This document shows, piece after piece, positions 8,836 through 32,972 of a stretch of 64,000 bases of DNA. Position numbers and translations under genes: made by a program. The notes under the pieces are model-generated. The model searched no databases and was not told the DNA's origin. It saw only the letters and a program-made list of their open reading frames with translations. Source of the stretch: an uncultured Alphaproteobacteria bacterium (GTDB taxonomy: Bacteria; Pseudomonadota; Alphaproteobacteria; RF32; CAG-239). Positions within the stretch are counted from its first letter, which is position 1, and every line of letters begins with the position of its first letter. The stretch is taken from NCBI GenBank assembly GCA_944391405.1, contig CALXTN010000004.1, positions 11,293-75,292 on the forward strand, given 5' to 3'.

Positions 8836-11800
8836 CTAGAATAGTTCAATATCTCCAGAAATATCTTCTTCTTCATCTGGCATTTCAGTTAGGGTTCCAT
8901 CTGCTGCTGGAGGAGGAATAGCTCCTATATTTTTTCTAGGTTGTGACTGATTATTTTGGTTGTTGTTCTCTTCAATTAATGGAGTTCCACCACTATTGTT
9001 TGAGTTATTGTTTTGTGATTGATTACCTAGAATAACTTTTTGACTACTTTGATTATTATTTCTATCTCCGGAAGATGTTGTTCCTCCTTGGCCTTCATAA
9101 TAAACTTCATTTACTAATTGTCCATCTGCGCTGTTTGGTATTCCGCTTATTATTCCTTTTTCAATGTCTTTTGTTGTTCTTAGCCATAAATCGCGCATAG
9201 GATAAATTATTACTCTTGTCCCTGCTGGAACATATGTTACAGGTTCTATTTGAGATTTGCTATCAATAATTTCTTGTAAAATCTGATCCATTTTCTCCAT
9301 AAATTGCTGACGCGCATCTGATGCTGCTTGTTGCTTAGAATTTTCTACTTCCCCAGTACTATCTTCATCGGCAGCCATCATATATGTTATTGCAGAGGTT
9401 ACCATTGTACCAACTATAGGTAATGTATACTTTTTAACTAATTGCTCATCAACATAACCTAGAGCGCCACCGCCTCGTCCTTGTGCATCACCTGTTTGTG
9501 TTCTACTTGGTGACAGTAAAAAGGCTATTCCGTCAGGACGAATAATTCTCTCCCATGATATTTCTAATTTAATTCCACCGCTTGTATTATCAAACCTTGC
9601 ATCGGCTTCTGTTGTTTGCAAACCGCCTATGATTCTGCTTCCTGCTGGAATTATAACATTTCGTCCTGAATCTCCGTAAATATTTCTCTCTACAATCGCC
9701 GTTACTGGGGCTGAACCTAAGGATATTAACGAGCGTGCGAGAACTGCTGGAATTGGTTTGTCTCCTGTAATCATATTATCCATATTTACTCTTAATGTCG
9801 AGACAGAACGATTTATCCCCCAGTCATCTTGCCAACCGGTATATGAAGCAGCATCGTATCCTGGATTTATTTTAGCAGCAACCATCGTTCTTCTTCTTTC
9901 ATCTTGAAGTTGGGATAATATTGCAGCCCTTCTTGGATTGTATCTTCCTCCTGGACCAACGCCTCCTCCAGGACCAACGTTTGTAATTTCATTGCCACTA
10001 CTATATGGATTTATAGTTGCTCCTGATGCTATTTGTTTCCACCAATTAGCATTTATTCCTTTACTATTTTTAGCTTCTTGTTGTTTTTCAAAGTTACCAA
10101 CTTTGTTTCCTTCTTTATCATATATTTCACCATTTTCATTTGCGCTTCCTATAACAGTTCCCGCATCATCTATAACTTTATTATTGCTATAGACATCGCC
10201 AATATATCTTCCGCCTGGAGTTACAGCTATTCCAACAATTTGGTAATCTTCTTTGGTTGCTTGCGCTTCTTGCTCTTCAGGACTTAAATTTGCTTCTTCT
10301 GGCTCTTTGTTAGGTTTATTTTTTTCATTTTCAGGTTCTGATTTATTTTCTTTTTCATCTTTAGTTTTTTCTGTTTCATTTGTTTCAGGAGTTTTTTCTA
10401 CACTGATTATTTCTTTAGGTTCTATGGGACGATGATAATATTGCAATTTCCATGCTTGTCCAAGTATCTCTCCTGTTGGCGATATAACTTTTCCCTCTTC
10501 ATTTATTTTCCCTATTTCAATATTTTTTGTATTGACTACGCTCCCATCCAAATTGAGATAACCAATTATCTGATTATTGTTATCTCTTATTTCATAATCT
10601 CTTAATCCTCTTCCTATTAAATTTTGTTTTTTATCTAATGCAAAACCTTGATATATTGAACCTTTTATTTCTCCCATTATACTATATACTCGACCATTTT
10701 TTGCAATATATCCTATTGTTTTTCCATCATTATTGTAAATATACAAATCATAAAGAGCATACCCACTCCCTCCTTTTTTAGTTTTTACTTCGCCGGTATA
10801 TAATACTGTTCCTAGATTTTCTCCTGTATCTGATACAACACTACCATCTGATTTTACTCTTCCCAAATATATGTTGTTTGAATCAAATGCTACTGTATAT
10901 TGAAATGGAACGCCAATATTCTTTCCTTCTTTTGATAAAACACTTCCATCAATGTCTATTGTAGCGATTTGCACCCCTGAATTATCTATTACATTTCCAT
11001 AAAAATTTGTATAGCCAAGAATTTTATTATCAAATCCCATGATAGACATATAAGGAATAATCTGTCCTATTATTTCCTTTTGTGCGTTTCGTACTTTTCC
11101 ATTAATATCAACACATCCTAAATTCTGATTAGAGTAGTTTAGAACATTTCCTGAGGTATTACTAACACCTACTACATCTCCACCTTTTCCATTTATTGGA
11201 CGAGATTGTGTTACATATCCAATCACTTCCTCTGTTTCATTTATAACTTGTTTATTAGGTAATATCATTCCCAAATATGCATCTTTTGATGTTCGAGCTT
11301 CACCATTATCTGATACAACACCTATAGTCTTACATTCTGTAGATATTACTGATCCCATTTCTAAAGTTTTTCCATATAAAGCTCCCATATTGTCTAAAAC
11401 ATAACCATTTGAGCTTATCTTCCCAATTATTTCCCCGCCTTTGATTACTTCTCCAGTTAGACTATTTGTTCCGAGGTAATCACCATTAATACTTACACTT
11501 AATAAAGAATTACTTGCTCGTCCAAAATTTTGGGAATAGCGTTCTGATATACCAACAACATTGTTATCTGGCAAAATTTTTGCAAAAATTTTATTTTGTG
11601 AATTTACAACTAAATTACCACTGTTTGCAACACCTAGCATTTCTCCTTCAAAATTTGTAATAAACTTGCTTTCAATCATTTTTCCCAATAATTTATTATT
11701 TTTATCTAGAAAAATTCCTGCTCCAGTAAATTTAGCTATCTCGTTCAGAGATTGATTTTCTGTTTGTCCATTATTTGAAGTATAAGATAATGTTGTTCCA

Positions 11801-13134
11801 TCTTCTGTATAAATACCTCCTTGTTTAATATTTATACCACTTATATCTCCTTTTTCATCAAAAATATATCCATAGGGCGATATTTTATACACGAGACCAT
11901 TTGCTCTTAAATTTGTTCCTATTCCATTTATTCCTAAAAATTCATTATTGTTATTAAAACATAGATTATCACCTAAAGTTTTTCCTATTACTCTACCATT
12001 GTTGTCAATAGCCTCACCTTGTCGTATTGTTCCTAGATCTACCCCTTCTAAAGATACTACTTTTCCTCCGACTGCTGCATTTGCTCGCAATTTTCCTAAG
12101 TAATCATATACAGGTCCTTCTGGATTTACTATGCCTATGACCTCCCCCTTTTCATCAATCACTTTTCCAGAAGCTCCAATTGTTCCAATTACATTACGTT
12201 TATTTAAAACTTTCCCTTCTGCTGTAACTCTTCCTAAATATTTTCCATCTAGCGTATTTATTGTTGCTGCCATATTTACAGTAAAACCTATCGTATTTCC
12301 TTCTTTATTTATTACTCTATTGCCGTTTACTGCATGAGCAACAACTGTTCCTTTATTTACGACTTCCCCATTATAACTGACGACACCTATATATTGACCA
12401 TTATTATTAAAGGCATAACCATTATTAACTATATGACCAATTGCTTGTCCATCTTTGTTATAAACGAACCCATTTGCATGGATGTTTCCTATAATATTCT
12501 TTTTTGCATCCATTACTTTTCCGTCTGGTGCTATACTTCCTAAATATTTTCCAGCCGTTGATATCACTATTTTTGATGTAATTAATTTTCCTATTAAATT
12601 AATTTTATTTTCTGTTCCTGTATAAGAATATACATAACCACTTGCTGTTACATAACCTGTATTTTCTCCAGATAGATTATAAAATTTTCCATCTCCAGAT
12701 ACTCTTCCAACTACTTGTCCATCATCATTGTATACTAAATTTGGAGATATTGAGGCTCCTAAAATATCGTAATTATCATTTACAATTAAACCATTGGGAA
12801 GAACTTTTCCTATTAACCTATCATTTATTGATGTAACTGAGCCATCATTATTAATTTTGCCAAGTATACTATTATTATATGATATTGCAATTCCCTGTGG
12901 AACCACTCCTCCTATTAAATTATTTTCATTATCATAGGCAAACCCATCTGCTGTTATATACCCAACTAATTCATTATCACTATTTATTACAGAACCATCA
13001 GGTATTACTTTCCCTATTAAATCTCCATTAAAATTAAGTGCACTAATATCTGCTGCCATTGTCTTCATACTTATAACAATACAGAAAAATGTTAGTCCTA
13101 ATATTTTACTTAACTTTATTGTGAATTTATGCAA
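8836..13134 (-). CDS. virB10: VirB10/TrbI-family core protein with ~18 N-terminal ~51-aa beta-hairpin repeats
   Basis: C-terminal region KPIPAVLARSL...AIVERNIYGDSGRNVIIPAGSRIIG...WERIIRPDG...GDAQGRGGGALGYVD...YVPAGTRVIIYPMRDL is VirB10-like; sits between virB9 and virB11. Likely start is TTG 13134 (GGAGGA RBS 6 nt upstream) rather than 13164. Confidence 0.9.
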   Translation of the reverse strand: MHKFTIKLSKILGLTFFCIVISMKTMAADISALNFNGDLIGKVIPDGSVINSDNELVGYITADGFAYDNENNLIGGVVPQGIAISYNNSILGKINNDGSVTSINDRLIGKVLPNGLIVNDNYDILGASISPNLVYNDDGQVVGRVSGDGKFYNLSGENTGYVTASGYVYSYTGTENKINLIGKLITSKIVISTAGKYLGSIAPDGKVMDAKKNIIGNIHANGFVYNKDGQAIGHIVNNGYAFNNNGQYIGVVSYNGEVVNKGTVVAHAVNGNRVINKEGNTIGFTVNMAATINTLDGKYLGRVTAEGKVLNKRNVIGTIGASGKVIDEKGEVIGIVNPEGPVYDYLGKLRANAAVGGKVVSLEGVDLGTIRQGEAIDNNGRVIGKTLGDNLCFNNNNEFLGINGIGTNLRANGLVYKISPYGYIFDEKGDISGINIKQGGIYTEDGTTLSYTSNNGQTENQSLNEIAKFTGAGIFLDKNNKLLGKMIESKFITNFEGEMLGVANSGNLVVNSQNKIFAKILPDNNVVGISERYSQNFGRASNSLLSVSINGDYLGTNSLTGEVIKGGEIIGKISSNGYVLDNMGALYGKTLEMGSVISTECKTIGVVSDNGEARTSKDAYLGMILPNKQVINETEEVIGYVTQSRPINGKGGDVVGVSNTSGNVLNYSNQNLGCVDINGKVRNAQKEIIGQIIPYMSIMGFDNKILGYTNFYGNVIDNSGVQIATIDIDGSVLSKEGKNIGVPFQYTVAFDSNNIYLGRVKSDGSVVSDTGENLGTVLYTGEVKTKKGGSGYALYDLYIYNNDGKTIGYIAKNGRVYSIMGEIKGSIYQGFALDKKQNLIGRGLRDYEIRDNNNQIIGYLNLDGSVVNTKNIEIGKINEEGKVISPTGEILGQAWKLQYYHRPIEPKEIISVEKTPETNETEKTKDEKENKSEPENEKNKPNKEPEEANLSPEEQEAQATKEDYQIVGIAVTPGGRYIGDVYSNNKVIDDAGTVIGSANENGEIYDKEGNKVGNFEKQQEAKNSKGINANWWKQIASGATINPYSSGNEITNVGPGGGVGPGGRYNPRRAAILSQLQDERRRTMVAAKINPGYDAASYTGWQDDWGINRSVSTLRVNMDNMITGDKPIPAVLARSLISLGSAPVTAIVERNIYGDSGRNVIIPAGSRIIGGLQTTEADARFDNTSGGIKLEISWERIIRPDGIAFLLSPSRTQTGDAQGRGGGALGYVDEQLVKKYTLPIVGTMVTSAITYMMAADEDSTGEVENSKQQAASDARQQFMEKMDQILQEIIDSKSQIEPVTYVPAGTRVIIYPMRDLWLRTTKDIEKGIISGIPNSADGQLVNEVYYEGQGGTTSSGDRNNNQSSQKVILGNQSQNNNSNNSGGTPLIEENNNQNNQSQPRKNIGAIPPPAADGTLTEMPDEEEDISGDIELF

Positions 13135-13135
13135 A

Positions 13136-16100
13136 TTAGTTCCTCCGGTTTTGCGCAACTTCATCTAATATATATCCGGAAACTTGGCCTCGTATATTTA
13201 TGTACGCACCATTGCTTTTTAAATATCCGATCTGCCCATTTGTTAGACTGTATATTACTCCGCTTGGAGATAGTCTACCCAAAAACTTTCCGTCATTGCT
13301 TAATATATTAGCACCTATTTTATAACTGTGTCCCAATATTTTTCCATTGTTATCTACAACTAAATTTGATGATATAATTCTTCCAATAACCATTCCTTCT
13401 TTATTTAAAACCTTACCTTCTGTATTTACGATACCTACAACTTGGTCTTCCTCGTTAATCACAATATCGTCATCTATGATTTCCCCTATTAAATATCCTT
13501 TTTTATCAATAGCTTGTCCTGAATTTAAGATTTTACCTATTTTAGTATTTTCTGTGGATATTATGTTCCCATCTGCCGCAACTTGACCTATTATTTTTCC
13601 AGAATAATTAAGAACAACACCTCTTTTTATTACATTATAATTTTTATTTGATATTCCTCCTGGAAGAATTGTCGCTATTATTTTATCTTCTTCATCAATA
13701 ATATCGCCTAAGGTATTCAGGTATCCGCGTATTTTTCCTTGCATATCTATTATGAAGTCTTCTTTTATTACCTCTCCTATTATTTGTTTATTTTCATCTA
13801 GAATATGACCTTCTGATCCAACATTACCACTTATATTTCCATCTACATCTATAACTTTACCACTTTTGCTAACGTATCCTAAATATGCTCCATCGTATCC
13901 AATACCTACTCCTGTTTTAACTAAGCCTCCTTTATATTCTCCTTGTTCATCAAACATTCTTCCTTTACCATCTATATGTCCCAATTCTGTACCAAGAACA
14001 TCTATTACTTTCCCCGAATCATTTACTATTCCTATATAATTTCCGTTAAAATCAACTACAGTGCCTTTGCTTATTATTTTCCCGGCTTTTTTCGAATAGA
14101 AAGAACTTCCATCATATACAAATTTATCTATAGCTATTCCTCTTTGATTATAGATATATCCGTCTGCAAAGAGATGACCAATTGTATTTCCATTTGCATC
14201 TACTACAACATTTTTTTCTGGTAATAGCACTCCTTGTACTTCTAATTTTGGATTTACTAAATATTTAGTAAATAATATCTTTGTATTAGGAATTATATCT
14301 TTGCTTTCATATTTAAAAATTGATAAATTATTTATAAAATCACCATTTATGCCAAACGCCTGTGTTTTATCCATAACTTGTCCAATAATAAAGCCATCTT
14401 TATTTAATATCTCGCCATCAAAATTTGCACAGCCAACCGCTTGGGAGCCATTTTTCACTGTACCATCCTGATTGATAGGGCCCATCATTTCTCCACTATA
14501 ATACAAAGCATAACTAGGTTCAAAAACTTTTCCTATTAATTTTCCATCTTGATTTAAAACTCCCCCGTCTGGATTTACACATCCAACATATCCCCCTTCA
14601 TTGTTTCGAACAAAACCATCATATCCGGCATTGCCTATAATATTACATTTTTCATCTCTGACTGCTCCTACCTTTGCTATGTCGCCTACGTAATTTCCTT
14701 CTTTATCAATTATAGAGCGATCAAATAACATTCGGTATTCGGTTTCTTTTCCATCTTTTTTTACTTTTGCATCTCTATCTACATAACCTAAATGTCTGCA
14801 TCCCCATCCTACAGCCATTCCTCCAATGACTGTTTTTCCAATTATTTTATCCCCTTCTTTTGATTTTATTAATGAATTTGGTAGTATCTGCCCAATTACT
14901 TCCTCTTTACTATTAATCACTTCACCTTTATTGTTGATTATTCCTAAACTGTATCCCATGGGGGAAATTGCTATCATATCTTTTTTTACAACAATTCCTA
15001 TTCTTACCCCTCGTGAACTAATTACATTACCATTTTCATCTATATATCCAATTACTATTCCCCTTCCGTCATAAACTTTTCCATCCTCGTCTATATAGCC
15101 TATAACGTTACCATTTTCGTCTATAGCCAGATTTGAGTAATCTCCTACCTGACCGACAATCTTACCATTTTCATCTATTGTAAAATCAACGTTTCCACCG
15201 ACTCTGCCAATGATATTTCCTTTTTCATCTTTTATACTACCATCTTCTTGAACTGTCCCTATTATATTGCCATTTAAATCCCTTGCTATTCCATTTTCAT
15301 CTATATATCCAATAACATTTCCTGCTTCATCTAGTATAGATTTTCGAGAAACTATTTTTAGGTTTCCATCTCCCTTTTCAGCTAATCTTCCAATATTTTC
15401 TCCGTTTACACCGTAAACATTTCCATCTTCGCCCACAACACCGATAACTTTACCATCTTTTCCTATAACTCTTCCTTGGTCATCAACGTAACCTATAATA
15501 TTACCATTTTCGTCTAGTACTACTTTTGCAAGTTCACCTGCTCTACCTATAATATTTCCGTTTATATCATTTATACTACCATCTTCACCTAAATATCCAA
15601 GCAGATTTCCTTCAAAATCACGCACTGTTCCATCTTCGTCTATATAACCGATAACATTCCCATTATTATCATATGCAAGTCGGCGATTTATATCAGCTTT
15701 GCCCAGAACTTCATCCGTTACACCAATGATATTTCCATCTTCATCAACAAAGCCTATCAGTTTACCATTTTCTCCATATACTTTTCCATCATCACCAACA
15801 TAGCCAATTACATTACCATTTTCATCTACAGCTAAAGTTTTTGTCTCACCTACCTTACCTATTTCTCGGCCATATGCGTCTATTATTCTTCCATCTTTGG
15901 TTGCTTTTCCTATTAAATTACCTTTAAAATCATATACATTTCCATCTTTATCAACGTATCCCATAACCTTTCCATTTTTGTCATAGGCCAAAGCTCCCTT
16001 TTTATCGACTTGTCCGATAATTTCTCCAGTATTTTTTAAAATGTTTCCATTTTCATCAACATAACCTAGAATATTTCCTTTGAAATCTTTAACTGTGCCG

Positions 16101-19100
16101 TCTTTGTCTACAAAACCTATAACCTTTCCATCTTTGTCATAAGCTAAATTTTTTGCACTGCCTACTTTTCCAATAATATTTCCATTTTTGTCTACTACAT
16201 TTCCTTTTTCATCTATTTTGCCAACAATATTGCCTTTCTCATCAATGACATTACCATTTTCATCAACATAACCTAGAATATTTCCGTCTTTATCATATGC
16301 AAGTCTTACACTTTTGCATGCGGTGCATATTACTTCGCCTGCGGCTTTTACTTCCTTATTTGTTGTTACATAGCCTATTAGTTTATTATCTTTGTTAAAT
16401 GCAAAATTATTTTCTTTCATATAGCCAATAATATTATTTCCGCTGTCTTTTATTGTTTTATTGTCTGCATCTAATTTTCCTATTATATTTTCTTTTGTTC
16501 TTAAAACATCACCTTTGATATCAACAATTCCTATTATTTCATCATCATTACCTCTTACATAATTTTGTGCATCTATATATCCAATAACATTACCTTCTGC
16601 TATTTGAGCAACGTTTAAGACTTCTCCTTTTAAACCTAGTAGCAGTCCTTTGTTATCAACTACATCTTCTCCTTTATTTGTTCCTATTATTTTATTCTTA
16701 AAATCTTTTACTACGTTATTTTTATCTAAATAACCAATAATCTTTCCTTTTTTATTTTTTATAATTCTTTTTCTTACACAGGTTCTCCCTATTACTGTAT
16801 TTCCTGCCTTTATTACATTTCCATTTTTATCAAGAAAACCTACTAAATTTCCATTTTCGTCAACAACTCTTCCGTTTTCATTCACGTACCCAATGATATT
16901 GCCATTTTTATCCGTAGCAACTTGTTTATATTCTCCAGCTTTACCAATTACACGACCTTTTTTATCCAGAATACTACCATCCTCAGCCATTCTTCCTATT
17001 AGATTACCTTTAAAATCTTTTACCGTTCCATCTGGAGTGATATATCCAATAACTTTGCCATTCTTGTCATAAGCTAACCTTTTGAAGTTTCCGGCAACTC
17101 CAAGCTTCTCTCCACTTGATGCAATTATATTACCATTTTTATCGACAATTCCAATGATTTTACCATCACAATTTATTACTCTCTTTTGGGCATCAATGTA
17201 ACCTATAAATATACCCTGATTATTAAACGCTAATTCTTTTATTCCGCCTGCTTTTCCTATTATTTTTCCATTTTTATCTACTATATTTCCAGAGGCATCC
17301 TTCTTACCAAGAACGCTTCCTCCGCAGCCTTTAGCCGTACCGTCTGTATCAACATAACCTATAAATTTTCCATTTTTATCATACACTATTTCTCTTGATG
17401 TTCCGGCTTTTCCTATTATTTTTCCATTTGTACCTATTACGTTACCTTTTTCGTCTACATATCCAACAAGAGCTCCATTTTTCCCTATTACGCGCCCTTT
17501 GTCATCAACAACACCTATTACATTGCCTTTTTTATCAAAAGCTACTGTTGCATAATTTCCAGCTTTTCCTATTATCTTTCCATTTTTATCTACTATATTT
17601 CCATTTTTATCTACTTTTCCGATAATATTACCGGCAAAGTCTATCACATTTCCATCATCATCGATATAACCTATCGGTTTACCATCTTTTCCTAGAGCTA
17701 TTCTTTTTTTATTACCACTTGTATCTGCCTGATTTATACCTATAATGTTTCCATTTTTATCTACATTACCGATATGTTTACCATTATGATCAAAAACTCG
17801 GCCTTGTTCATCAACGTATCCTATAACTTTTCCATCTTTGTCTAGCGCTAGTTTGGCATAATTTCCAGCTCTTCCTATTATATTTCCATTTTTATCTACT
17901 ATATTTCCGTTTTTATCTACTTTTCCGATAATATTGCCCTTAAAATCTTTTACTGTTCCATCTTTATCAACATAACCGATAATGTTCCCATCTTTATCAT
18001 AGGCTAATCTTCGGCTTGCTCCCACTTTACCTATTATGTCTGCTTTTTTGTTGTCTTTATCAAATTTTACAACTTTCCCATTTTCATCAATATAACCTAT
18101 TGCTTTTCCATCTTTGTCATAAACAATTTTACGACTATCTCCATTCGTACCTATTTTTTCTTTTGCAACTTTATAAACATTACCATTTTCATCCACATAA
18201 CCAACAATATTGCCGTCTTGATCAACAACACTATTGTCTGGCATTACCACACCTAGCACATTACCATTTTCATCAACCACAATGTTTCCTGATGATGTTA
18301 CTTTACCAATAACATTACCATTTTCATCAACAACTTCTCCCTTTTCATTAAGGCGACCTATAATTTTTTTAGGATCATTAATATCAACTACGGTTCCATC
18401 GGGTAGAACTCGTCCGATAATTTTACCATTTTTATCATACACAAATCCTGCTTCTACAGCTTTTCCTATAACCTCACCCTTACTGTTTACAATAGTACCA
18501 TCGGGAAGAGCCTTTCCAATTACCTCTCCTTGTAAATCTACAACAGTTCCATCGGTTTTTACATAACCGATAATGTTCCCATCTTTGTCATATGCTAATT
18601 TCATATTTTGGGCTACACCTATTATATTACCATCAGCATCAACGATAAGACCATCTTCATTTACTTTACCGATAATATTCCCATCTTTGTCATGAACATT
18701 ACCTGCTTCATCAATGTATCCTATAATTTCACCATTTGGCCCTATCGCAAGACGATGTGCACCTATACCACTCCCTTCTCCTATTACACATCCTTCTCCC
18801 GTACCACAATTTTGCTGATTGTCTTCAGGATATACAGCACTTCCTCTTATACTTACTTCTTCCGATTTTGCGCTCGATTTATCTAAACGCGTCTCATACC
18901 ATATTACTTTGAAATTATTTTGAACATTTCCTGGTAAATGCGGAATCCAAGTTATTAATACGTTACAAGTTTCATCTCCACGTAAATCTCTGTTTCTGCA
19001 TTTGTCCCTATACTCAAATCCATCTTCTGTTTCTTCGACAAGCTCTACTCTTTCAATATGAATACTTTCACTACCATCGGTTCCTATAGTTAAGACACTT

Positions 19101-19417
19101 TGATTTTGGGTATCTACTCCTAAAACAAATTTATTCATATTTATTTGTGCTGGCGTAATTTTGATCGGTTTGCTTTTATCTTTATCTGAAGCGGCTTCTG
19201 TATCAATAAATATTGGGCCTTCATCTGCATTTATTTCTGGGAGAATATTTTGATTTTCTACAAAATTTGGAACAGCTTCTTCTGGATTGTAAACTTCAGT
19301 CTCTGAAGAAATCATCAGTAATCCAATTAGAAAAAAGCAAAATGCGATAATTCCTATTGCGAAAATTATCTTTCGAGTTTTTCTTTCATATTCTTCAAAC
19401 CGAGTATTCTCGTTCAT
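13136..19417 (-). CDS. 2093-aa membrane-anchored repeat protein: N-terminal TM, Ig-like (ASH/choice-of-anchor-D-like) domain, ~35 tandem ~51-aa beta-hairpin repeats
   Basis: Basic N-tail plus one hydrophobic helix (IIFAIGIIAFCFFLIGLLMI); C..L...ETC.VLITW.P..PG pattern; repeats such as LAYDKDGNIIGYVDKDGTVKDFKGNIIGKVDKNGNIVDKNGNIIGRAG; overlaps the virB9 stop by 4 nt. Confidence 0.85.
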   Translation of the reverse strand: MNENTRFEEYERKTRKIIFAIGIIAFCFFLIGLLMISSETEVYNPEEAVPNFVENQNILPEINADEGPIFIDTEAASDKDKSKPIKITPAQINMNKFVLGVDTQNQSVLTIGTDGSESIHIERVELVEETEDGFEYRDKCRNRDLRGDETCNVLITWIPHLPGNVQNNFKVIWYETRLDKSSAKSEEVSIRGSAVYPEDNQQNCGTGEGCVIGEGSGIGAHRLAIGPNGEIIGYIDEAGNVHDKDGNIIGKVNEDGLIVDADGNIIGVAQNMKLAYDKDGNIIGYVKTDGTVVDLQGEVIGKALPDGTIVNSKGEVIGKAVEAGFVYDKNGKIIGRVLPDGTVVDINDPKKIIGRLNEKGEVVDENGNVIGKVTSSGNIVVDENGNVLGVVMPDNSVVDQDGNIVGYVDENGNVYKVAKEKIGTNGDSRKIVYDKDGKAIGYIDENGKVVKFDKDNKKADIIGKVGASRRLAYDKDGNIIGYVDKDGTVKDFKGNIIGKVDKNGNIVDKNGNIIGRAGNYAKLALDKDGKVIGYVDEQGRVFDHNGKHIGNVDKNGNIIGINQADTSGNKKRIALGKDGKPIGYIDDDGNVIDFAGNIIGKVDKNGNIVDKNGKIIGKAGNYATVAFDKKGNVIGVVDDKGRVIGKNGALVGYVDEKGNVIGTNGKIIGKAGTSREIVYDKNGKFIGYVDTDGTAKGCGGSVLGKKDASGNIVDKNGKIIGKAGGIKELAFNNQGIFIGYIDAQKRVINCDGKIIGIVDKNGNIIASSGEKLGVAGNFKRLAYDKNGKVIGYITPDGTVKDFKGNLIGRMAEDGSILDKKGRVIGKAGEYKQVATDKNGNIIGYVNENGRVVDENGNLVGFLDKNGNVIKAGNTVIGRTCVRKRIIKNKKGKIIGYLDKNNVVKDFKNKIIGTNKGEDVVDNKGLLLGLKGEVLNVAQIAEGNVIGYIDAQNYVRGNDDEIIGIVDIKGDVLRTKENIIGKLDADNKTIKDSGNNIIGYMKENNFAFNKDNKLIGYVTTNKEVKAAGEVICTACKSVRLAYDKDGNILGYVDENGNVIDEKGNIVGKIDEKGNVVDKNGNIIGKVGSAKNLAYDKDGKVIGFVDKDGTVKDFKGNILGYVDENGNILKNTGEIIGQVDKKGALAYDKNGKVMGYVDKDGNVYDFKGNLIGKATKDGRIIDAYGREIGKVGETKTLAVDENGNVIGYVGDDGKVYGENGKLIGFVDEDGNIIGVTDEVLGKADINRRLAYDNNGNVIGYIDEDGTVRDFEGNLLGYLGEDGSINDINGNIIGRAGELAKVVLDENGNIIGYVDDQGRVIGKDGKVIGVVGEDGNVYGVNGENIGRLAEKGDGNLKIVSRKSILDEAGNVIGYIDENGIARDLNGNIIGTVQEDGSIKDEKGNIIGRVGGNVDFTIDENGKIVGQVGDYSNLAIDENGNVIGYIDEDGKVYDGRGIVIGYIDENGNVISSRGVRIGIVVKKDMIAISPMGYSLGIINNKGEVINSKEEVIGQILPNSLIKSKEGDKIIGKTVIGGMAVGWGCRHLGYVDRDAKVKKDGKETEYRMLFDRSIIDKEGNYVGDIAKVGAVRDEKCNIIGNAGYDGFVRNNEGGYVGCVNPDGGVLNQDGKLIGKVFEPSYALYYSGEMMGPINQDGTVKNGSQAVGCANFDGEILNKDGFIIGQVMDKTQAFGINGDFINNLSIFKYESKDIIPNTKILFTKYLVNPKLEVQGVLLPEKNVVVDANGNTIGHLFADGYIYNQRGIAIDKFVYDGSSFYSKKAGKIISKGTVVDFNGNYIGIVNDSGKVIDVLGTELGHIDGKGRMFDEQGEYKGGLVKTGVGIGYDGAYLGYVSKSGKVIDVDGNISGNVGSEGHILDENKQIIGEVIKEDFIIDMQGKIRGYLNTLGDIIDEEDKIIATILPGGISNKNYNVIKRGVVLNYSGKIIGQVAADGNIISTENTKIGKILNSGQAIDKKGYLIGEIIDDDIVINEEDQVVGIVNTEGKVLNKEGMVIGRIISSNLVVDNNGKILGHSYKIGANILSNDGKFLGRLSPSGVIYSLTNGQIGYLKSNGAYINIRGQVSGYILDEVAQNRRN
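16047..16285. repeat. 32-bp exact direct repeat within the giant repeat gene (16047-16078 and 16254-16285)
   Basis: ccattttcatcaacataacctagaatatttcc occurs twice, 207 bp apart (in frame). Confidence 0.9.
17550..17935. repeat. 80-bp near-identical direct repeat (17550-17629 and 17856-17935), 306-bp period
   Basis: 3 mismatches in 80 nt by manual alignment; partial third copy near 17251-17290; a further 26-bp exact repeat at 17970-17995 / 18561-18586. Confidence 0.88.
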
Positions 19418-21375
19418 TGCACTCTGACCACACTACAAAATATACCGTTACGCCCTAATTGACTACAAATATTATCACCTTCTTCTAAGGATTTCACTGG
19501 ACCGACACGAAGATGAAATACTTCTTTTCCTTGTCCATCTGCTGGAGTATCTACCGAGTAGAATGGTTGATATTTACCTAATGTTGCTGAATAATTTTTT
19601 GAGATATCATTCCATAATTTTTCTAAATTATTTACATCTTTATCCGTTCCTAATTCTATTGAAATATTACTTTCATTACTATTTGCAAATGCCTTTCCAT
19701 CTCTAAACTCTTTAAGCAATGCTTCTGTTTCAGCTGAAACCATTGAATTTTGTTTTTCCAAATTATTCTCTTTGGGTGTAATTAAAACTGGACTAGAGTT
19801 ATTGTTTGAACTTCCTACTTTAGGTGCGACATTATTTGTTCCCGTATTTTGTTGTATATCTTTTTGATAAATTACAGAAGCATCTGACTTATTATTATAT
19901 TGAGGAGTTATCAATTCTGCACCATTTGCCTTAGTATCATACTGCCCAGTTACTGTCACCTCATCTGATGTCTGTTCTGCATTTGGAGCTGATACGAGAG
20001 GCTTTGCTTTGGGTAATGTATCAAGTAAAGTAACACTATTCGTTTTAGGCGTTTCTTTAATTTGGCTATTAATGATTTCCTTTGATGTAGTTTGAGGCGC
20101 AATATTATTTACTGCATTTTTTTTACTACTTATCATATCTTCATAGCTCAAGCTCGAGCTTTTCTCTGTTGAAGAATTATTGGTGCTTTCTGCTGGCCCA
20201 AAAAATGAGTTTATACCAAAAAATGAATCTTTTGTACTGTTTGTGCTATTTTTATTCTCGCCGTAAACATCCTCATAATTTTCTGTATTTTCTTCTTCCG
20301 GCGTTTTCGAATTCTGGTAGTGTTTTGCCTGCAAATCCCATTCATTCGTTTTGGCATAAACTGTATTTTCTAAGCCATCTGAATCTGTTCTCCTTAATTT
20401 TAAACAAACAATCCTTTTACCGCTCCGAAGAACCATATCTCCCATACCTTCAACGATTATCAAACGGTTATTTGGACCTGCGGTTCTAAAACCAACCGGC
20501 GTTTCCGATCTTTCTACAATTAAGGTCACTATAGGTCTCTGATTTGCTGTTAAAGCCTTATCTCCTAAATCTATATAAGTAAAAATATTATCTCGCCATA
20601 CACGTTCCGGGGCTATTATTATATCATCAGGATTTGGTACATATACTTCTATATCAAAACGAAATTGTGTCGGATCTACTGGTATTTTTTCTATCCAATC
20701 TTCTTTCTGCAAATCTCTCGTGAATGTTGAATCTGCACTGTTTCCATTTTGACCATAACTACTTGCGTTGATGTGTCCGCCACTATTATTGTTGCCAATT
20801 ACCGCAGAGCCTGTAGCATTTTGACCTCTTTTGACCACTTCTATATCAATTATTGCATTAGTTATTCTATCTGTATTGACTGTTTCGCTTTGAACATAGA
20901 AAACATATTTATTACCTGAGCGGCCAAAAACAATCATATTAGTATCCACCCCCACAAATTGTGAAGAATCCGGATACACCATTAAACTAGATGGACCTTG
21001 TATTTCTGCATTAAAAGATTGTCCGTCACCAATGTATACATTTTCTATTACTTCCCAATTAGGAAAATTTATTAAAGTATACATTCCTTCACGAACCCTT
21101 ACCGGCAAAACCAATTCCGGTGTCCAATAATATTTTGTATATCCTGGACGACTTTGTCCTTCTCCCATATGTTGAAGAGGATCTTTCCAGGCACTTTGCA
21201 TCATCCCGAGAGACCCTACTCCTCCTAAATAATTTAAATTTGTTGCAGCATAATTCCCTTGGCTTTGATCTGCATTTTGGTCTAAATTATCTTTTGTAAC
21301 CTGTGCTTGCACGGCAGGAGCAAAAATGCCTGCTGAGATTAATATTACAGATAAAATGCTCACTATCTTCATCAT
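19414..21375 (-). CDS. virB9: VirB9/TrbG-family protein fused via a low-complexity linker to a C-terminal SPOR-like domain
   Basis: Signal peptide; VRVREGMYTLINFP...TNMIVFGRSGNKYVFYV (VirB9 NTD); PERVWRDNIFTYI...RPIV...MVLRSGKRIVCL (CTD); C-terminal LWNDISKNY...FHLRVGPVKSLEEGDNICSQLGRNGIFCSVV (SPOR-like). Confidence 0.85.
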   Translation of the reverse strand: MMKIVSILSVILISAGIFAPAVQAQVTKDNLDQNADQSQGNYAATNLNYLGGVGSLGMMQSAWKDPLQHMGEGQSRPGYTKYYWTPELVLPVRVREGMYTLINFPNWEVIENVYIGDGQSFNAEIQGPSSLMVYPDSSQFVGVDTNMIVFGRSGNKYVFYVQSETVNTDRITNAIIDIEVVKRGQNATGSAVIGNNNSGGHINASSYGQNGNSADSTFTRDLQKEDWIEKIPVDPTQFRFDIEVYVPNPDDIIIAPERVWRDNIFTYIDLGDKALTANQRPIVTLIVERSETPVGFRTAGPNNRLIIVEGMGDMVLRSGKRIVCLKLRRTDSDGLENTVYAKTNEWDLQAKHYQNSKTPEEENTENYEDVYGENKNSTNSTKDSFFGINSFFGPAESTNNSSTEKSSSLSYEDMISSKKNAVNNIAPQTTSKEIINSQIKETPKTNSVTLLDTLPKAKPLVSAPNAEQTSDEVTVTGQYDTKANGAELITPQYNNKSDASVIYQKDIQQNTGTNNVAPKVGSSNNNSSPVLITPKENNLEKQNSMVSAETEALLKEFRDGKAFANSNESNISIELGTDKDVNNLEKLWNDISKNYSATLGKYQPFYSVDTPADGQGKEVFHLRVGPVKSLEEGDNICSQLGRNGIFCSVVRVQ

Positions 21376-23270: not shown

Positions 23271-26200
23271 CTAGTATATTGGTGCATACGGCACAGCTTG
23301 GCTTTGGTTATCCATAGATTTTAGACCTTCTTCAGTTGCTTCCATAGAGGTTTCACGATTGACTTCAGCCTCGACCTTAGCTGCTTCTACATCTTCTGGT
23401 CTAGAATCAGGTTGAATAAAGGTTACTTCCTCCTCATCTTTTTCGAAGGAGTTTAAGTAGTTTTGAATATTTCGAATACGTTCCGTTACTTTGTCGTGAC
23501 CTTCCATCGTCTTAACGTTTTCGAACCCTTCATACGTTCCTTCTTCATCTGTATAACCCTGCTCTGCTTTATTTATCGCTTCACCTTTTAATTCGTCAAG
23601 TTTACAGAAGATTGTTTCATAATAAGAACCAGAGTTGGATTGTTCACAATTTATCTTATCTTCAAAATATGCGTTATCATTTGAATCCTTAGCTAATCCT
23701 CCGTTTTCCATTATGTATTCTGCACAAACACTATCTGCATCATCGCCACTTTCACCGTTCACCGTTTCTCCATAATTGTGAAGCTGATTGCATAGTGTTT
23801 TTAGAGAATCCTTAATATCTTCTTCATTCTTTTCCAGAGCTTTTTGCGCAGAATGTTCCGCATTTACCGCATCTAAGAATGAACCGATGAGATTGCGTTT
23901 GTACACTGCTGTATCTGCACGTTGGCGCTCAATATTATTTTCTTGGTTTTCGTCACTAAGCAAGTAATCATAAATATTCTTTAATATTGGACGATACTTT
24001 AACTCATCATTTAGCAGTTGACCAAGTTCACTGTATTTACCATACATTGGTTCATTGCTTATTTCTAGCTCCGGTTGGATAGCTTTATCTTGATCTGCTA
24101 ACAAATGGCGTACTCCATTTCCAGATAATGCGATTTCTCGACAATCTTTTTGGTATACTTCCGGCAACTGAGGAGGCGTTAAACGACGCATAAATTGAAT
24201 TTCTGCCACGCTATCATCACCACCACCTGCTATATCTATATATTTATCACCTAATTTACATGGATATATACCGGCTCTATTGATTATAGTTCTGTAGTGT
24301 TCAGGTTCTGCACTGTCAATTCCTTTGTTTTTTAATTGATTTTTTAATTTATCCAAACCATATGAGCGTTCAACAAATGTATGTTGATATTTTCGATCAT
24401 TCCTTAAGTTTGGCGTTGCTAATAAATAACGCCACGTTTCCGGTAAATATTCAACTTGATGCTTCTCGGTATCTTTGTATTTCATATCAACAAGTGCTGA
24501 TAATGATGGTTTTCCATCATTTTGCGGAACGTCATCATAATCTAACGCACTAAAGTAAAATACTTCTCTTACCGGTGCTAAGTTTAATAATGGCTTTCTT
24601 GGCGCATAATAATCGCGACCATCATTGTTATCAACGATAAAATCCTCTGCATTTCGTCCAAATTGAACAAATGTATTTGTTTGTGAGTCATTATCTTCTT
24701 TTTTACCAAAATATCCTCTTGCCGGCAGGGCTACAAAGTAGTCATCATCCGTTTTAATCTCATCCGGAATGCCAAAGATTTTTTGTAACTCAATATCTGC
24801 TTCGTCAAGTATCTCTTTATTTTCCTCTGTAGGTTGTTTTAAATCCTCCAGCAATTTATAGTGTGTTGCGGTTATTATTTGCGTATCTGTTTTTTGGGCT
24901 TCAGTTGCTCCATCCTTAGCATATTTGTCATGTTCAAAAATAGCTGAATCTGCACCATTATTATCTGTTCCGGTTATTTTCCATCTTTGCATGACGGATG
25001 TAACTTTTTTAGCGGCTGCTTCAATTTCTGTTTCAATGATTTCATCAGCTCTTAAAATTTTCTTTTTCAATTCTTTTGCCGCATCTTTAACAGCTTTTTC
25101 CTTTATTGCTTGAGCCAGCCTCTCTCGTGTATAGGTTCCGCCATTTATTCCATCAAAGACATTATCTTCAATATAAAATTTCTCAACGACGCCTGCTTGC
25201 TTTAACTTTTGAGCAGCCTGATTTTCCCAATTTGGGGTAAACCATCTATCATTAATACTATCTTGAATAATGCCTTCAAGTTCACTCTCTACTTGATTTT
25301 GATTGTTTGTATTTGTATTTCCAAACATTACTCGAGCCATTGTCCAACTTAAATTGTCAGATTTATATCCATACTCTGTGTTGTATTCGTTACATGGTAA
25401 CCAAGGAAGTATCTGATTACACCTTTCTCTATTTTTGTTCTCCATTCTATCCGGAAATGTGCCATCCTCTTTGGGCTCTAATTTATTTTCTAATTTTCTA
25501 TTTTCGTTTTCTATTTTCGTTTGTCCTTCTTCTGATTCCTTAATATAATCCTCAGCAAACTCGGTTGCCGTTGTTTCAAGTTTTTGATTTAGTTCATCAA
25601 CTTTTTCTTGTAATACACTCATCATCGACTTTGCACTAGTGATTTCTGTATTCATTTGAGTTATTATATTGGACAATTCTCCAACATTTTGGAATTCTAT
25701 GTCAGTACCTTGGTATATTTCTTCTTTTTCTTTACTAGCTTCGGAACGATATTCTTTGCATACCTCATGATTATCATCTTCAGGAGCTTGATAGCATATA
25801 TATTTTAATTCTTCTTTTAGCGCAGGAATTTGACCTTTTTTCTGTGCTAATGTTGGATTGTCAAATTTATTTGAGTCGTCACCAGCCCCTTTTTCTATTG
25901 ATTCAATTTCCTTTTGCAATCCAGCTTTTTGTTTTGGATTATTGTTTTGAAGCTCTTCTAGTTCTTCAACGCGATTTTCTAGTTCGGCAATTTGTGAAAT
26001 AATTGCAGATACGCGTTGTAATGAGCGTTGACGTTCTTCTACAGCATTATTTTTATTTGTTGTTGCCGTATCTAACTTATCAACATAGTTGTTTCTTTGA
26101 TTTATGGTTTCTTCAAGCTCTTTTTTGATAGCATCTATTTTGGTATTATAATCCTGTATAAGGTCCTGCAGATTTTGTTCTACTTTTTTTCTTGTATTTA

Positions 26201-28682
26201 AGATGCCTATGAAGTGATCTGCCGCAACAACTCTTCCAGCTTTGTTAGTTTGTTTATATAAGTGCTCATTTTGTTTATCATAATCACGCGGACAAGTTTG
26301 TTCATATGTTCCGTCTTGCTTCCAGCTGGCAATTACTCCTGGAATATATTTTTTGACTAGGAATTTAGTAGAGAAATCCCATTCTCCAGGGCATTTATCT
26401 CCTTTATCTTCTATTTTACTATAATCAGTCTTCTCTTTTGTGAAATCGCAGCCACCATTTTCACTCTTAATAGCTTGGCTGTAGCTTTCGCTCCTTACAG
26501 TGATATTATCACAACTATCCCTTTTGGTAAGTTTTATTTTACCAGTGCTATTATCACCTTTTACAATGCATGTGTTTACTATTCTTTCTCCTGAGCACGA
26601 TATCGTTTTAACCGCAACGCATTCTAGAACGTCATTTGTTGGAGAGGAAGGACATTCGCCTACATAGCCGCCATTTTTACATTTCTCATTGAATAAATTT
26701 TTTGCCACCTCTGTTGTCAATTGACACGAAGACACCGCCGGCAATATTTTTTCAATTAGACCATTTTCGTTATAGCTATTTGTTAAAATATTTGCCACAC
26801 GTTGCGAAAGCATGCCTTGGTCTACAGTATTAATCATCATGCGTATATTGCGGTATTTATTGCGCAGATATTCTGTTTGCAGGTCCTTTTGATCATTCCA
26901 TGGGGCAAATTTTAGTGTTCCGTTCTCGGTTAGCTCCATTATGTTGTCATAGCCTATACGCCAATTTTTCTCGGCCTTTATTCTGTTTTCTGTTTCTATA
27001 TTTTCAGCCTCATTTCCATCTTTTAAATAATCCATATCGTTATACTTGAGTTCTTCAACGATACTGTAATCATCTAATTTGGGTGTATATGATACTTTGG
27101 GATCTTCTTCCGGATCTGTATCTGATGTTATTGTATTTAATACACAAGCAAATTTTGTTGTGCTTTCTACTTGTTTTCCGGTGCTGTCTGTGTAGACACA
27201 TGGATTTCCTTCATCTGGTGTATAGCCGTCTGGACAAGTTTCATAGAATCCACTGCAGTCATCCGAATCTGTACCGATTAATTTATCTGTCGCGTCTTCT
27301 TGATACTCCTCAATAACTTTCTTTGATAAACCTCCGCGATTTTCATGGTCATTGACTTTGGACGGTTTCCGGCCTTCATACCATATCTTTTCTCCTTGAT
27401 TATTACTATATTTATCTAGGAAACTTACCACATTTTTTTCACTTTCTTCTAATACTTTGAGCATTCTTTCGTGTATTTCTTTTGATTTTAGGTATTTTCT
27501 GTATTGGGTTTTATATTCTGCTAATTGCGATTTTAGATTATGCAGATTCATTGCTTTGTTTATCTGCTCATCAATTGGCTGTAGTTTACCTAAAATTGTT
27601 GTATCATCTGTATTAAGAATTTCAGTAGAATCATCATTTTTATCTGGACAGTTGCTGCCTCCTTGGGCACATACGTCGCTTCTTTTATACTCTCCTCCCA
27701 GCATTTTTCCTGCTGCTAAAGCATAATCTCTACTTTCATTGTATGCAAATCTATATCTTGTATTAATATAATCCTCTGCTGAAGATTGATTGTCTAATTC
27801 AGAAGATTGATTGTCTGGCTCTACCGGATCAACACTATCTATTTGTACTGCTGATAAAAATTGAGCTTCAGTTCCGGTCAAATCTTCAACGATGCGCATT
27901 AATCTATCGTATACTGTTGTGACAATATAGGCGTTCAAAACTTCCCCATATTGCCCCGGATTTGTACTGTCTTCTGGTTTACCTTCTTTATCTAAACTGT
28001 CTTTTTGGGGCTCAACATAGGCCATTTGTAATCCAAAAAACACACAATGCTTTTCCACCTCTGGATACATCCCTTTTTGGCAGTTATCTAGGCGCTCTAT
28101 AGTTTTTTCTACTAAGGCAAGGTAATTTTCTGTTACACGGCCAGTTAAATATGTTTCCATAGTAATATCTTGCATGTATTCATTTGCCTTGCGTTTATAT
28201 GCTTGCTTTACTGCCGGATAATTTACAACGGGGGATGTTCCATCTTCTGCATCGCTCTCTGGTAGTTGATAGCTGTTTTTTGGGGGATATACAAAAAATA
28301 GAGTATGAAACGCGTTAAAGTACTCTTCTTCATTTATATCACCCGATATCCCTAATAAACTACTTGCTTTTAATTTTCCTTTTCCCGGAGCTTTGTTGGT
28401 GTCTCCTTCTTCCTCTGCACTAAACGTAGTCTTCAAAAACTTTTGTCCTTTTTTTAGAATTTCAAGTTTTTGACTGTTTAATTCCGACTTTATGGTCTGA
28501 AGTTGGCGGTATGTAGCTTTTATATTTGACACAATCTTATTGGCATTACCAGGAATATCCACTTCAATATCCCATGGCATTGGGGGTAAGAGCCCAAAAG
28601 CTTTTGCTTCTTGTATCCCTGCTCCTAAGATAAACACACTCAGAATTAGGCTTTGTAAAACTTTTAACTGCTTTCTAACCAT
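23271..28682 (-). CDS. 1803-aa secreted Cys-rich / coiled-coil protein (putative T4SS adhesin or tip protein)
   Basis: Signal peptide ending AKA; helical N-domain like neighbouring paralogues; several Cys clusters; central heptad coiled coil (QNLQDLIQDYNTKIDAIKKELEE...); no other TM segment. Confidence 0.75.
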   Translation of the reverse strand: MVRKQLKVLQSLILSVFILGAGIQEAKAFGLLPPMPWDIEVDIPGNANKIVSNIKATYRQLQTIKSELNSQKLEILKKGQKFLKTTFSAEEEGDTNKAPGKGKLKASSLLGISGDINEEEYFNAFHTLFFVYPPKNSYQLPESDAEDGTSPVVNYPAVKQAYKRKANEYMQDITMETYLTGRVTENYLALVEKTIERLDNCQKGMYPEVEKHCVFFGLQMAYVEPQKDSLDKEGKPEDSTNPGQYGEVLNAYIVTTVYDRLMRIVEDLTGTEAQFLSAVQIDSVDPVEPDNQSSELDNQSSAEDYINTRYRFAYNESRDYALAAGKMLGGEYKRSDVCAQGGSNCPDKNDDSTEILNTDDTTILGKLQPIDEQINKAMNLHNLKSQLAEYKTQYRKYLKSKEIHERMLKVLEESEKNVVSFLDKYSNNQGEKIWYEGRKPSKVNDHENRGGLSKKVIEEYQEDATDKLIGTDSDDCSGFYETCPDGYTPDEGNPCVYTDSTGKQVESTTKFACVLNTITSDTDPEEDPKVSYTPKLDDYSIVEELKYNDMDYLKDGNEAENIETENRIKAEKNWRIGYDNIMELTENGTLKFAPWNDQKDLQTEYLRNKYRNIRMMINTVDQGMLSQRVANILTNSYNENGLIEKILPAVSSCQLTTEVAKNLFNEKCKNGGYVGECPSSPTNDVLECVAVKTISCSGERIVNTCIVKGDNSTGKIKLTKRDSCDNITVRSESYSQAIKSENGGCDFTKEKTDYSKIEDKGDKCPGEWDFSTKFLVKKYIPGVIASWKQDGTYEQTCPRDYDKQNEHLYKQTNKAGRVVAADHFIGILNTRKKVEQNLQDLIQDYNTKIDAIKKELEETINQRNNYVDKLDTATTNKNNAVEERQRSLQRVSAIISQIAELENRVEELEELQNNNPKQKAGLQKEIESIEKGAGDDSNKFDNPTLAQKKGQIPALKEELKYICYQAPEDDNHEVCKEYRSEASKEKEEIYQGTDIEFQNVGELSNIITQMNTEITSAKSMMSVLQEKVDELNQKLETTATEFAEDYIKESEEGQTKIENENRKLENKLEPKEDGTFPDRMENKNRERCNQILPWLPCNEYNTEYGYKSDNLSWTMARVMFGNTNTNNQNQVESELEGIIQDSINDRWFTPNWENQAAQKLKQAGVVEKFYIEDNVFDGINGGTYTRERLAQAIKEKAVKDAAKELKKKILRADEIIETEIEAAAKKVTSVMQRWKITGTDNNGADSAIFEHDKYAKDGATEAQKTDTQIITATHYKLLEDLKQPTEENKEILDEADIELQKIFGIPDEIKTDDDYFVALPARGYFGKKEDNDSQTNTFVQFGRNAEDFIVDNNDGRDYYAPRKPLLNLAPVREVFYFSALDYDDVPQNDGKPSLSALVDMKYKDTEKHQVEYLPETWRYLLATPNLRNDRKYQHTFVERSYGLDKLKNQLKNKGIDSAEPEHYRTIINRAGIYPCKLGDKYIDIAGGGDDSVAEIQFMRRLTPPQLPEVYQKDCREIALSGNGVRHLLADQDKAIQPELEISNEPMYGKYSELGQLLNDELKYRPILKNIYDYLLSDENQENNIERQRADTAVYKRNLIGSFLDAVNAEHSAQKALEKNEEDIKDSLKTLCNQLHNYGETVNGESGDDADSVCAEYIMENGGLAKDSNDNAYFEDKINCEQSNSGSYYETIFCKLDELKGEAINKAEQGYTDEEGTYEGFENVKTMEGHDKVTERIRNIQNYLNSFEKDEEEVTFIQPDSRPEDVEAAKVEAEVNRETSMEATEEGLKSMDNQSQAVPYAPIY

Positions 28683-32906: not shown

Positions 32907-32972
32907 ATCACGCCCTCCCTAATAATCTTTATTGTACTCCAATTATCTTAAACTTATTGATAATACGTTAAT

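Follow-up and report, generated by a model that had tools for sequence, protein, structure and literature searches.

A VirB9 protein with a C-terminal SPOR-fold domain

The sequence analyzed here (the window) is a 64,000-nucleotide stretch of contig CALXTN010000004.1 (positions 11,293 to 75,292 of the forward strand) from an uncultured alphaproteobacterium (GenBank assembly GCA_944391405.1; GTDB lineage RF32; CAG-239), the genome of which is a 1.72-Mb metagenome-assembled genome with 100% completeness. Within a single-strand type IV secretion system (T4SS) cluster, the open reading frame (ORF) at window positions 19414 to 21375 (minus strand, as are all window features below) encodes a 653-amino-acid (aa) secreted VirB9 that ends in a SPOR-fold domain. 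The cluster starts with VirB2 (TrbC), VirB4, and five secreted proteins, continues with VirB8, a 62-aa VirB7-like lipoprotein, a second VirB8, and this VirB9, and is completed by a 2093-aa repeat protein, a 1442-aa VirB10, and VirB11 (T2SSE). A first-pass annotation of the window, made from its letters, had proposed a fusion of VirB9 to a SPOR-like tail that, by binding denuded septal glycan, may target or tether the core complex to the septum or new pole and could thereby substitute for a missing VirB1. The fusion was borne out in both sequence and fold, whereas the septal targeting was not.

The gene has an AGGA ribosome-binding site ~8 nt 5' of its ATG. The N terminus of its product is, as judged from the sequence itself, a Sec signal peptide (residues 1 to 24; positions 21304 to 21375; MMKIVSILSVILISAGIFAPAVQA, followed by Q), which ends in VQA; the A24-Q25 cleavage motif was invariant in 25 relatives. 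The first part of the mature protein is an N-terminal extension (residues 25 to 79; positions 21139 to 21303) ahead of the Pfam VirB9 match; this extension was nearly invariant across 25 relatives at 63 to 84% identity and gave no match in a Pfam scan. The VirB9/CagX core (residues 80 to 325; positions 20401 to 21138, close to the ~20390 to 21150 of the first pass) scored 52.3 bits against a PF03524 (CagX) cutoff of 34.2 and matched profile positions 4 to 195 of 198. Its two parts, a beta-sandwich at the N-terminal end and a beta domain at the C-terminal end, are separated by a variable Gly/Ser/Asn-rich loop (residues ~184 to 222). The strand layout was taken from a full-length AlphaFold2 (AF2) model, which was poor (mean predicted local distance difference test [pLDDT] score, 40; predicted template modeling [pTM] score, 0.26) and was used for secondary-structure layout alone. 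Regarding the NCBIfam equivalog of P-type VirB9 (TIGR02781), the score of 35.5 bits, obtained for residues 85 to 166 only, was far under the cutoff of 217.7, indicating a divergent VirB9 rather than a close ortholog of the Agrobacterium type. Sequence searches of the PDB with the core recovered just TrwF and Xanthomonas VirB9, both weakly (E values, 0.1 to 0.7), and a profile of the full-length protein recovered nothing at an E value of ≤0.01.

Canonical VirB9/TraO/TrwF/TrbG proteins (PDB 7O3J, 6GYB, and 3JQO) share the CagX family, the placement between virB8 and virB10, the signal peptide, and the two-domain beta core, but they are ~250 to 300 aa long and end at the C-terminal beta domain. 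To this plan, the window VirB9 adds the 55-aa N-terminal extension, a linker of ~200 aa, and the SPOR-fold domain. The linker (residues 346 to 547; positions 19735 to 20340) is of low complexity and rich in N, S, T, K, and E (Asn, 13%; Ser, 13%; Thr, 10% over residues 346 to 553), and no secondary structure was predicted for it in the full-length AF2 model; the length of ~230 aa given earlier for an S/T/N-rich linker was right to within ~20 aa. Among relatives, the linker was the sole part of the protein that drifted in length and sequence. A conserved short helix (AETEALLKEFR; residues 548 to 558; positions 19702 to 19734), found by structure prediction and alignment, stands directly ahead of the SPOR domain. 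Short islands were conserved within the linker across 25 relatives (FF..N.F at ~385 to 391, LPK at ~454 to 456, TGQYD.K..E..P.YN at ~476 to 494, and NNSSPVLI.PK at ~524 to 534), and the sequence between them drifted. These islands may serve as short linear motifs or as sites of strand addition.

The SPOR-fold domain comprises the last 84 aa of the protein (residues 570 to 653; positions 19417 to 19668) and ends in FHLRVGPVKSLEEGDNICSQLGRNGIFCSVV(RVQ), which a check of the codons confirmed as the ending reported for a domain of ~85 aa. In the whole protein, Pfam SPOR (PF05036) matched residues 579 to 651 with 21.3 bits against a cutoff of 21, which is a small margin; the isolated 101-aa tail scored 26.5 bits. 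Thus, both PF05036 and PF03524, the two families named for checking in the first-pass annotation, were above their gathering cutoffs. A SPOR match was present in 17 of 17 aligned relatives (best E value, 3.2e-07), and no other family matched consistently. An AF2 model of the tail, based on an alignment of 17 sequences, had a mean pLDDT score of 81.6 (83 to 93 in the domain blocks) and a beta-alpha-beta-beta-alpha-beta topology (b1, 570 to 576; a1, 584 to 599; b2, 604 to 609; b3, 619 to 627; a2, 630 to 642; b4, 646 to 652). The top three Foldseek matches in the PDB were all solved SPOR domains, i.e., RlpA (6i09; E value, 6.1e-4; template modeling [TM] score, 0.78 on the target; root mean square deviation, 2.3 A), CwlC (1x60), and RlpA (6i05), with DedD (6ztg) at rank 14; the other matches were generic ferredoxin-like folds (TM score, ~0.3 to 0.4).

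When a tail-only profile was searched against 1.84 billion representative proteins, 180 were found. The strongest matches were other VirB9-SPOR proteins, and the weaker ones were canonical tandem-SPOR proteins that scored 80 to 111 bits on PF05036. The isolated-domain score, the fold, and the profile search establish that the tail is homologous to SPOR domains. It has the same ribonucleoprotein-like fold (TM score on the target, 0.69 to 0.78 for the best structural matches) as the SPOR domains of RlpA, FtsN, DamX, DedD, and CwlC (PDB 6I05/6I09, 1UTA, 2LFV, 6ZTG, and 1X60), and FtsN, DamX, and DedD likewise carry a C-terminal SPOR domain after a long low-complexity linker. The known domains are found on divisome proteins or lytic transglycosylases, whereas this one is attached to a subunit of a secretion machine. 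Some of the tail-profile matches (P0153 and P0187) had ankyrin repeats at the N terminus and tandem SPOR domains at the C terminus, an architecture that is unusual for a periplasmic wall-binding domain.

A survey of VirB9-plus-SPOR architectures, as had been suggested, detected the tail in 150 of 151 genomes and in 20 of 20 genera in a sample of the host's order. The VirB9-SPOR frames were 515 to 700 aa long where a contig end did not shorten the frame. Tail-bearing relatives were matched in 149 species-level genomes; among the matches listed (80 of 149), every one was an uncultured alphaproteobacterium of gut origin (human, ruminant, rabbit, and other hosts). Gene order was fully kept in two divergent loci (L045 and L078), and VirB9-SPOR genes also stood beside VirB8 or VirB10 in more distant alphaproteobacterial loci with a higher G+C content. 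In a tree of the domains, the VirB9-linked tails formed one clade (support, 0.975). On the basis of this distribution and the single clade, the fusion is an old one with a single origin and is part of the lineage's core genome. Its fixation across a whole order of abundant uncultured gut and rumen Alphaproteobacteria indicates that it is part of how the core machine is built. Across relatives at 72 to 93% identity, 46 of the 101 tail columns were invariant, making the tail as conserved as the VirB9 core, and there were no stops or truncations. This conservation and the universal retention indicate that the tail is functional.

An altered glycan-contact signature

The canonical SPOR cleft has a hallmark Gln (RlpA Q270, FtsN Q251, and DamX Q351) that hydrogen-bonds to the lactyl group of N-acetylmuramic acid and to the N-acetyl group of N-acetylglucosamine. 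A basic patch around b2 and b3 (RlpA R302, R309, and R311; FtsN R285) binds the lactyl carboxylate. In crystal structures of RlpA with glycan, Q270, R302, and R309 contact the denuded glycan, R311 does so through water, and F274 provides a CH/pi stack (PMC6895207). The contact is made largely via the backbone, and Q270, at position 8 of the hidden Markov model (HMM), is the sole glycan-contacting side chain that is highly conserved among SPOR domains (PMC6895207). Both Q251 and R285 of FtsN are required for septal localization (bioRxiv 10.1101/2024.05.13.594014). Although Q251E is used as an allele defective in binding denuded glycan (bioRxiv 10.1101/2024.05.13.594014; PMC6895207), its septal signal was merely halved (bioRxiv 10.1101/2024.05.13.594014), with binding down ~2-fold.

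We compared these positions in 353 domains aligned to the tail profile (120 close relatives, 19 divergent VirB9-linked representatives, and SPOR domains that are not linked to VirB9). The hallmark position is occupied by Glu574 (positions 19654 to 19656), and the local Pfam alignment of the tail starts at HMM position 9, one residue past it. Glu was present in 119 of the 120 close relatives and in 16 of the 19 divergent representatives (the others being Gln, Asp, and a gap, one each), and among the non-VirB9 domains that the tail-profile search recovered, 129 had Gln. The stacking aromatic that ends b1 in RlpA (F274) is replaced in the window VirB9 by Asp578 (positions 19642 to 19644). This residue was Asp in all 120 close relatives; across all VirB9-linked domains, it was D, N, G, A, H, or S but in no case Phe or Tyr, and Phe, Tyr, or Trp occurred in 112 non-VirB9 domains. 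In strand b3 (His621-Leu622-Arg623; positions 19507 to 19515), His621 replaces RlpA R309/FtsN R285. His was found here in 120 of 120 close relatives, and Arg was found in 12 of 19 divergent representatives and in 141 non-VirB9 domains. Arg623, the equivalent of RlpA R311, was retained in every VirB9-linked domain (120/120 close and 19/19 divergent); in Gln-type domains, this residue was Arg in 50% and Gln in 43%.

The charge of the domain is altered as well. The window tail has a net charge of -2 and an isoelectric point (pI) of 5.2, and VirB9-type domains had a median net charge of -3 and a median pI of 5.0, with 15% being net positive; the medians for canonical SPOR domains were +1 and 8. 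The same genome encodes two canonical SPOR proteins, an RlpA homolog and a 324-aa bitopic protein, the SPOR domains of which keep the hallmark Gln and are basic (net charges, +2 and +5; pI values, 8.9 and 9.75).

Other features of the tail are shared with canonical domains or are private to the VirB9 type. The Cys637-Cys647 pair was found in 100% of the VirB9-type tails and was missing from a single domain of the 353 aligned. Also intact are the G-P turn that follows b3 and the backbone-binding strands. Thus, compared with known SPOR domains, the tail keeps the G-P turn, the R311 equivalent, and the alphaproteobacterial a2-b4 disulfide; unlike them, it has Glu, Asp, and His in the cleft, is acidic, and has its own b2, loop, and C-terminal R-x-Q. 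The private features are P-[YF]-[YF]-S-V-D in b2, an A-D-G loop, Leu584-Glu585 in a1, and the exact C terminus V-V-R-x-Q. The tail is a naturally occurring "Q251E-like" SPOR domain on which purifying selection is strong, offering a test case for SPOR ligand specificity, and a Pfam SPOR match should not be equated automatically with septal targeting.

A Glu-type first repeat was also present in tandem-SPOR proteins of ~400 to 480 aa (P0159, P0166, P0198, P0226, and others), the second repeat of which was more canonical. Natural Glu-type SPOR domains therefore exist outside T4SSs.

Possible roles of the tail

Beyond the architecture, fold, conservation, single origin, and altered signature observed here, the reading that we favor, plausible though still tentative, is that the T4SS core complex binds and is tethered to the cell wall by these tails. 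The gene encodes VirB9, the core subunit at the outer membrane, for a T4SS that is chromosomal and vertically inherited; the host belongs to an order of gut and rumen Alphaproteobacteria that are uncultured and have small genomes. The disulfide-stabilized SPOR-fold tail of this VirB9 descends from alphaproteobacterial SPOR domains and was captured once. Approximately 14 copies of the tail per core complex would hang into the periplasmic space and together form a multivalent tether that ties or positions a very large machine on the peptidoglycan sacculus, and the floppy linker of ~200 aa would let the tail reach the sacculus from the outer-membrane ring. The signal peptide and the Cys pair, which is common to canonical alphaproteobacterial SPOR domains, point to a periplasmic location. 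This location, the conserved disulfide, and the position at the end of a floppy linker fit a wall-binding module to which ~14 copies would give avidity.

Several points weigh against wall binding. Neither the single tail nor the 17-sequence profile found a SPOR chain in sequence searches of the PDB; SPOR domains are too divergent for such searches, so a fold comparison was needed. In the glycan cleft, the two side chains that are most diagnostic have been exchanged, and the domain carries a net negative charge, which should repel the lactyl carboxylates of denuded glycan. Moreover, the family-specific conserved surface (b2, the ADG loop, and the C-terminal R-x-Q) could equally be a protein-binding face. 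Given the remodeled cleft (Glu for Gln, Asp for the aromatic, and an acidic surface), high-affinity recognition of denuded glycan specific to the septum is probably not what the tail does; its binding is probably weak and driven by avidity, or aimed at a different feature.

A tether of this kind would have precedents. Large envelope machines must cross and hold the peptidoglycan layer, and wall-binding modules are known in type II and type VI secretion systems, type IV pili, and flagella. Full-text literature searches found no paper that joined VirB9 with a SPOR domain or a type IVA VirB9 with a built-in wall-binding fold, nothing relevant for T4SS, SPOR domain, and core complex, and nothing for RF32 Alphaproteobacteria and type IV secretion. 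Wall-binding modules on envelope machines are a known theme, and an atypical SPOR tail fused to a type IVA core subunit appears to be an undescribed form of it. The closest functional analog is DotK of Legionella pneumophila, likewise a peptidoglycan-binding module in the outer-membrane core of a T4SS. It is an OmpA-like core-complex lipoprotein that binds sacculi and keeps Dot/Icm at the poles (PMC10266036). DotK differs in that its OmpA-like fold is unrelated and reads the peptide stem, it is a separate lipoprotein and not fused to VirB9, it belongs to a type IVB system, and its binding is demonstrated, whereas that of the tail is inferred.

It is also possible, although we hold this with more reserve, that the VirB9-linked tails are a respecified SPOR subfamily directed at another cell wall chemotype or at a protein of the secretion machine rather than at septal denuded glycan. 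Its marks would be the fixed Gln-to-Glu change, the lost stacking aromatic, the acidic surface, the private face, and the invariant R-x-Q C terminus. If so, the subfamily would represent a second, non-divisome SPOR function in an order-wide core secretion system.

Somewhat less likely than the tether, in our estimate, but a serious rival to it, is that the SPOR fold was repurposed to bind a protein or a chemically different envelope ligand instead of peptidoglycan; candidate partners would be another T4SS component, such as the downstream Lys-rich beta-flower repeat proteins, or other SPOR tails. Such a role would account for the invariant surface outside the canonical cleft (YFYSVD in b2, the ADG loop, Leu584-Glu585, Gly633-Asp634, and the VVR-x-Q C terminus) and for the acidity of the domain, and tandem-SPOR proteins, too, can have a Glu-type domain as their first repeat. 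The stop codon of virB9 and the start codon of the next gene, for the 2093-aa repeat protein, share an ATGA (positions 19414 to 19417; ORF coordinates and sequence, GCAATGAACG), which indicates translational coupling of the two genes and is consistent with a partnership of their products. Furthermore, a SPOR-SPOR self-interaction has been proposed for FtsN (bioRxiv 10.1101/2024.05.13.594014). However, a floppy linker of 200 aa better suits a distant, extended target such as the sacculus than a neighboring subunit.

The version of repurposing in which the Glu-type cleft reads the amine of de-N-acetylated glucosamine lacks phyletic support, as the tail tracked neither known deacetylase family. 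Of 41 genomes examined from the order, a single one had PF01522 deacetylases, and this genome had none. The PF04748 (SddA/YibQ) type, which deacetylates denuded strands in Escherichia coli (PMC12440217), was carried by 35 of these 41 genomes, usually in two copies, but was found neither in this genome nor in any of six sampled genomes of the genus, which keep the Glu-type tail. The absence of PF04748 from 6/6 genomes of the genus, compared with its presence in 35/41 of the order, indicates a genus-level loss, and the tail is independent of both families. Through other deacetylases, recognition of de-N-acetylated glycan may be possible.

We consider it improbable that the tail reads denuded glycan, recruits or retains the core complex at the septum (and hence at the new pole), where amidases strip the glycan, and renders VirB1 dispensable by letting assembly use a wall that is already open, along the lines of the first-pass annotation. 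The SPOR fold and Pfam membership are established, and the genome encodes an AmiC-type amidase, so denuded glycan should exist. Because SPOR contacts are in large part made by the backbone (PMC6895207) and FtsN Q251E still gives half the septal signal, the altered side chains might be tolerated, and 14 copies could compensate through avidity. Polar placement of a T4SS via mid-cell assembly also has a precedent in Legionella (PMC10266036). Nevertheless, Glu574, Asp578, His621 (Arg to His in the close relatives), and the net charge of -2 all speak against this recognition, Glu at the hallmark position being the very change that makes FtsN Q251E binding defective. In addition, the two canonical SPOR proteins of the same genome keep Gln and a basic pI, which marks the change as specific to VirB9.

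The argument from VirB1 fared no better. No SLT domain was found in the window, but a 213-aa SLT protein, of the size of VirB1, is encoded elsewhere in the genome (contig C13), adjoining lepB (signal peptidase I). The RlpA homolog, a lytic transglycosylase with a canonical SPOR domain, is also encoded elsewhere. The statement that VirB1 is missing thus holds for the window alone and was rejected as an argument for its replacement by the tail. The single VirD4 coupling protein (a 746-aa frame) is likewise on another contig (C1:55919-57508) than the virB cluster; given that accessory T4SS genes are placed apart in this way, the absence of virB1 from the locus is a weak ground for compensation. 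Finally, a binding domain has no lytic activity; binding glycan does not cleave it, and the tail cannot open the wall.

A decaying or neutral appendage, which the loss of canonical ligand-binding residues might have suggested, is effectively refuted by the 46 invariant columns of 101, the retention in 150 of 151 genomes and 20 genera, the lack of stops, and the conserved disulfide pair.

Neighboring genes of the T4SS cluster

The two genes downstream of virB9 (window 8836 to 19417, minus strand) encode giants that share beta-flower repeats (PF21785, PF21784, and DUF3659). The 2093-aa protein is membrane anchored and has no VirB10 domain. The 1442-aa VirB10 has its TrbI domain (residues 1132 to 1328; 98.6 bits) after ~1100 aa of repeats. 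Both giants were kept in their size class in L045 and L078.

Between virB4 and virB8 (window 23271 to 34115, minus strand), five consecutive ORFs encode proteins of 380, 710, 238, 460, and 1803 aa, none of which had a Pfam or NCBIfam match above threshold. There was no VirB6/TrbL match among the ORFs scanned, no search aimed at VirB6 having been made.

The overall arrangement resembles the rvh system of Rickettsiales, in which virB7 lies between two virB8 copies, virB9-virB10-virB11 come next, and virD4 and a VirB1-like gene are located elsewhere. Like the present system, rvh is alphaproteobacterial, chromosomal, vertically inherited, and of the P type. With VirD4 on C1 and the sole clear SLT protein on C13, the T4SS genes of this genome are scattered, as they are in rvh. 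The two systems differ in the giant beta-flower repeats of the window VirB10 and in the extra 2093-aa protein, and we know of no SPOR tail on RvhB9.

In a Joint Genome Institute metagenome contig (L087), a distant VirB9-SPOR (P0156) was accompanied only by a VirB10 of 663 aa. Upstream of this VirB9-VirB10 pair were clpB, ruvA, and a mitofilin-like gene, and the contig ended just downstream. Given these housekeeping-gene neighbors and the contig end, this T4SS appears to be split into islands.

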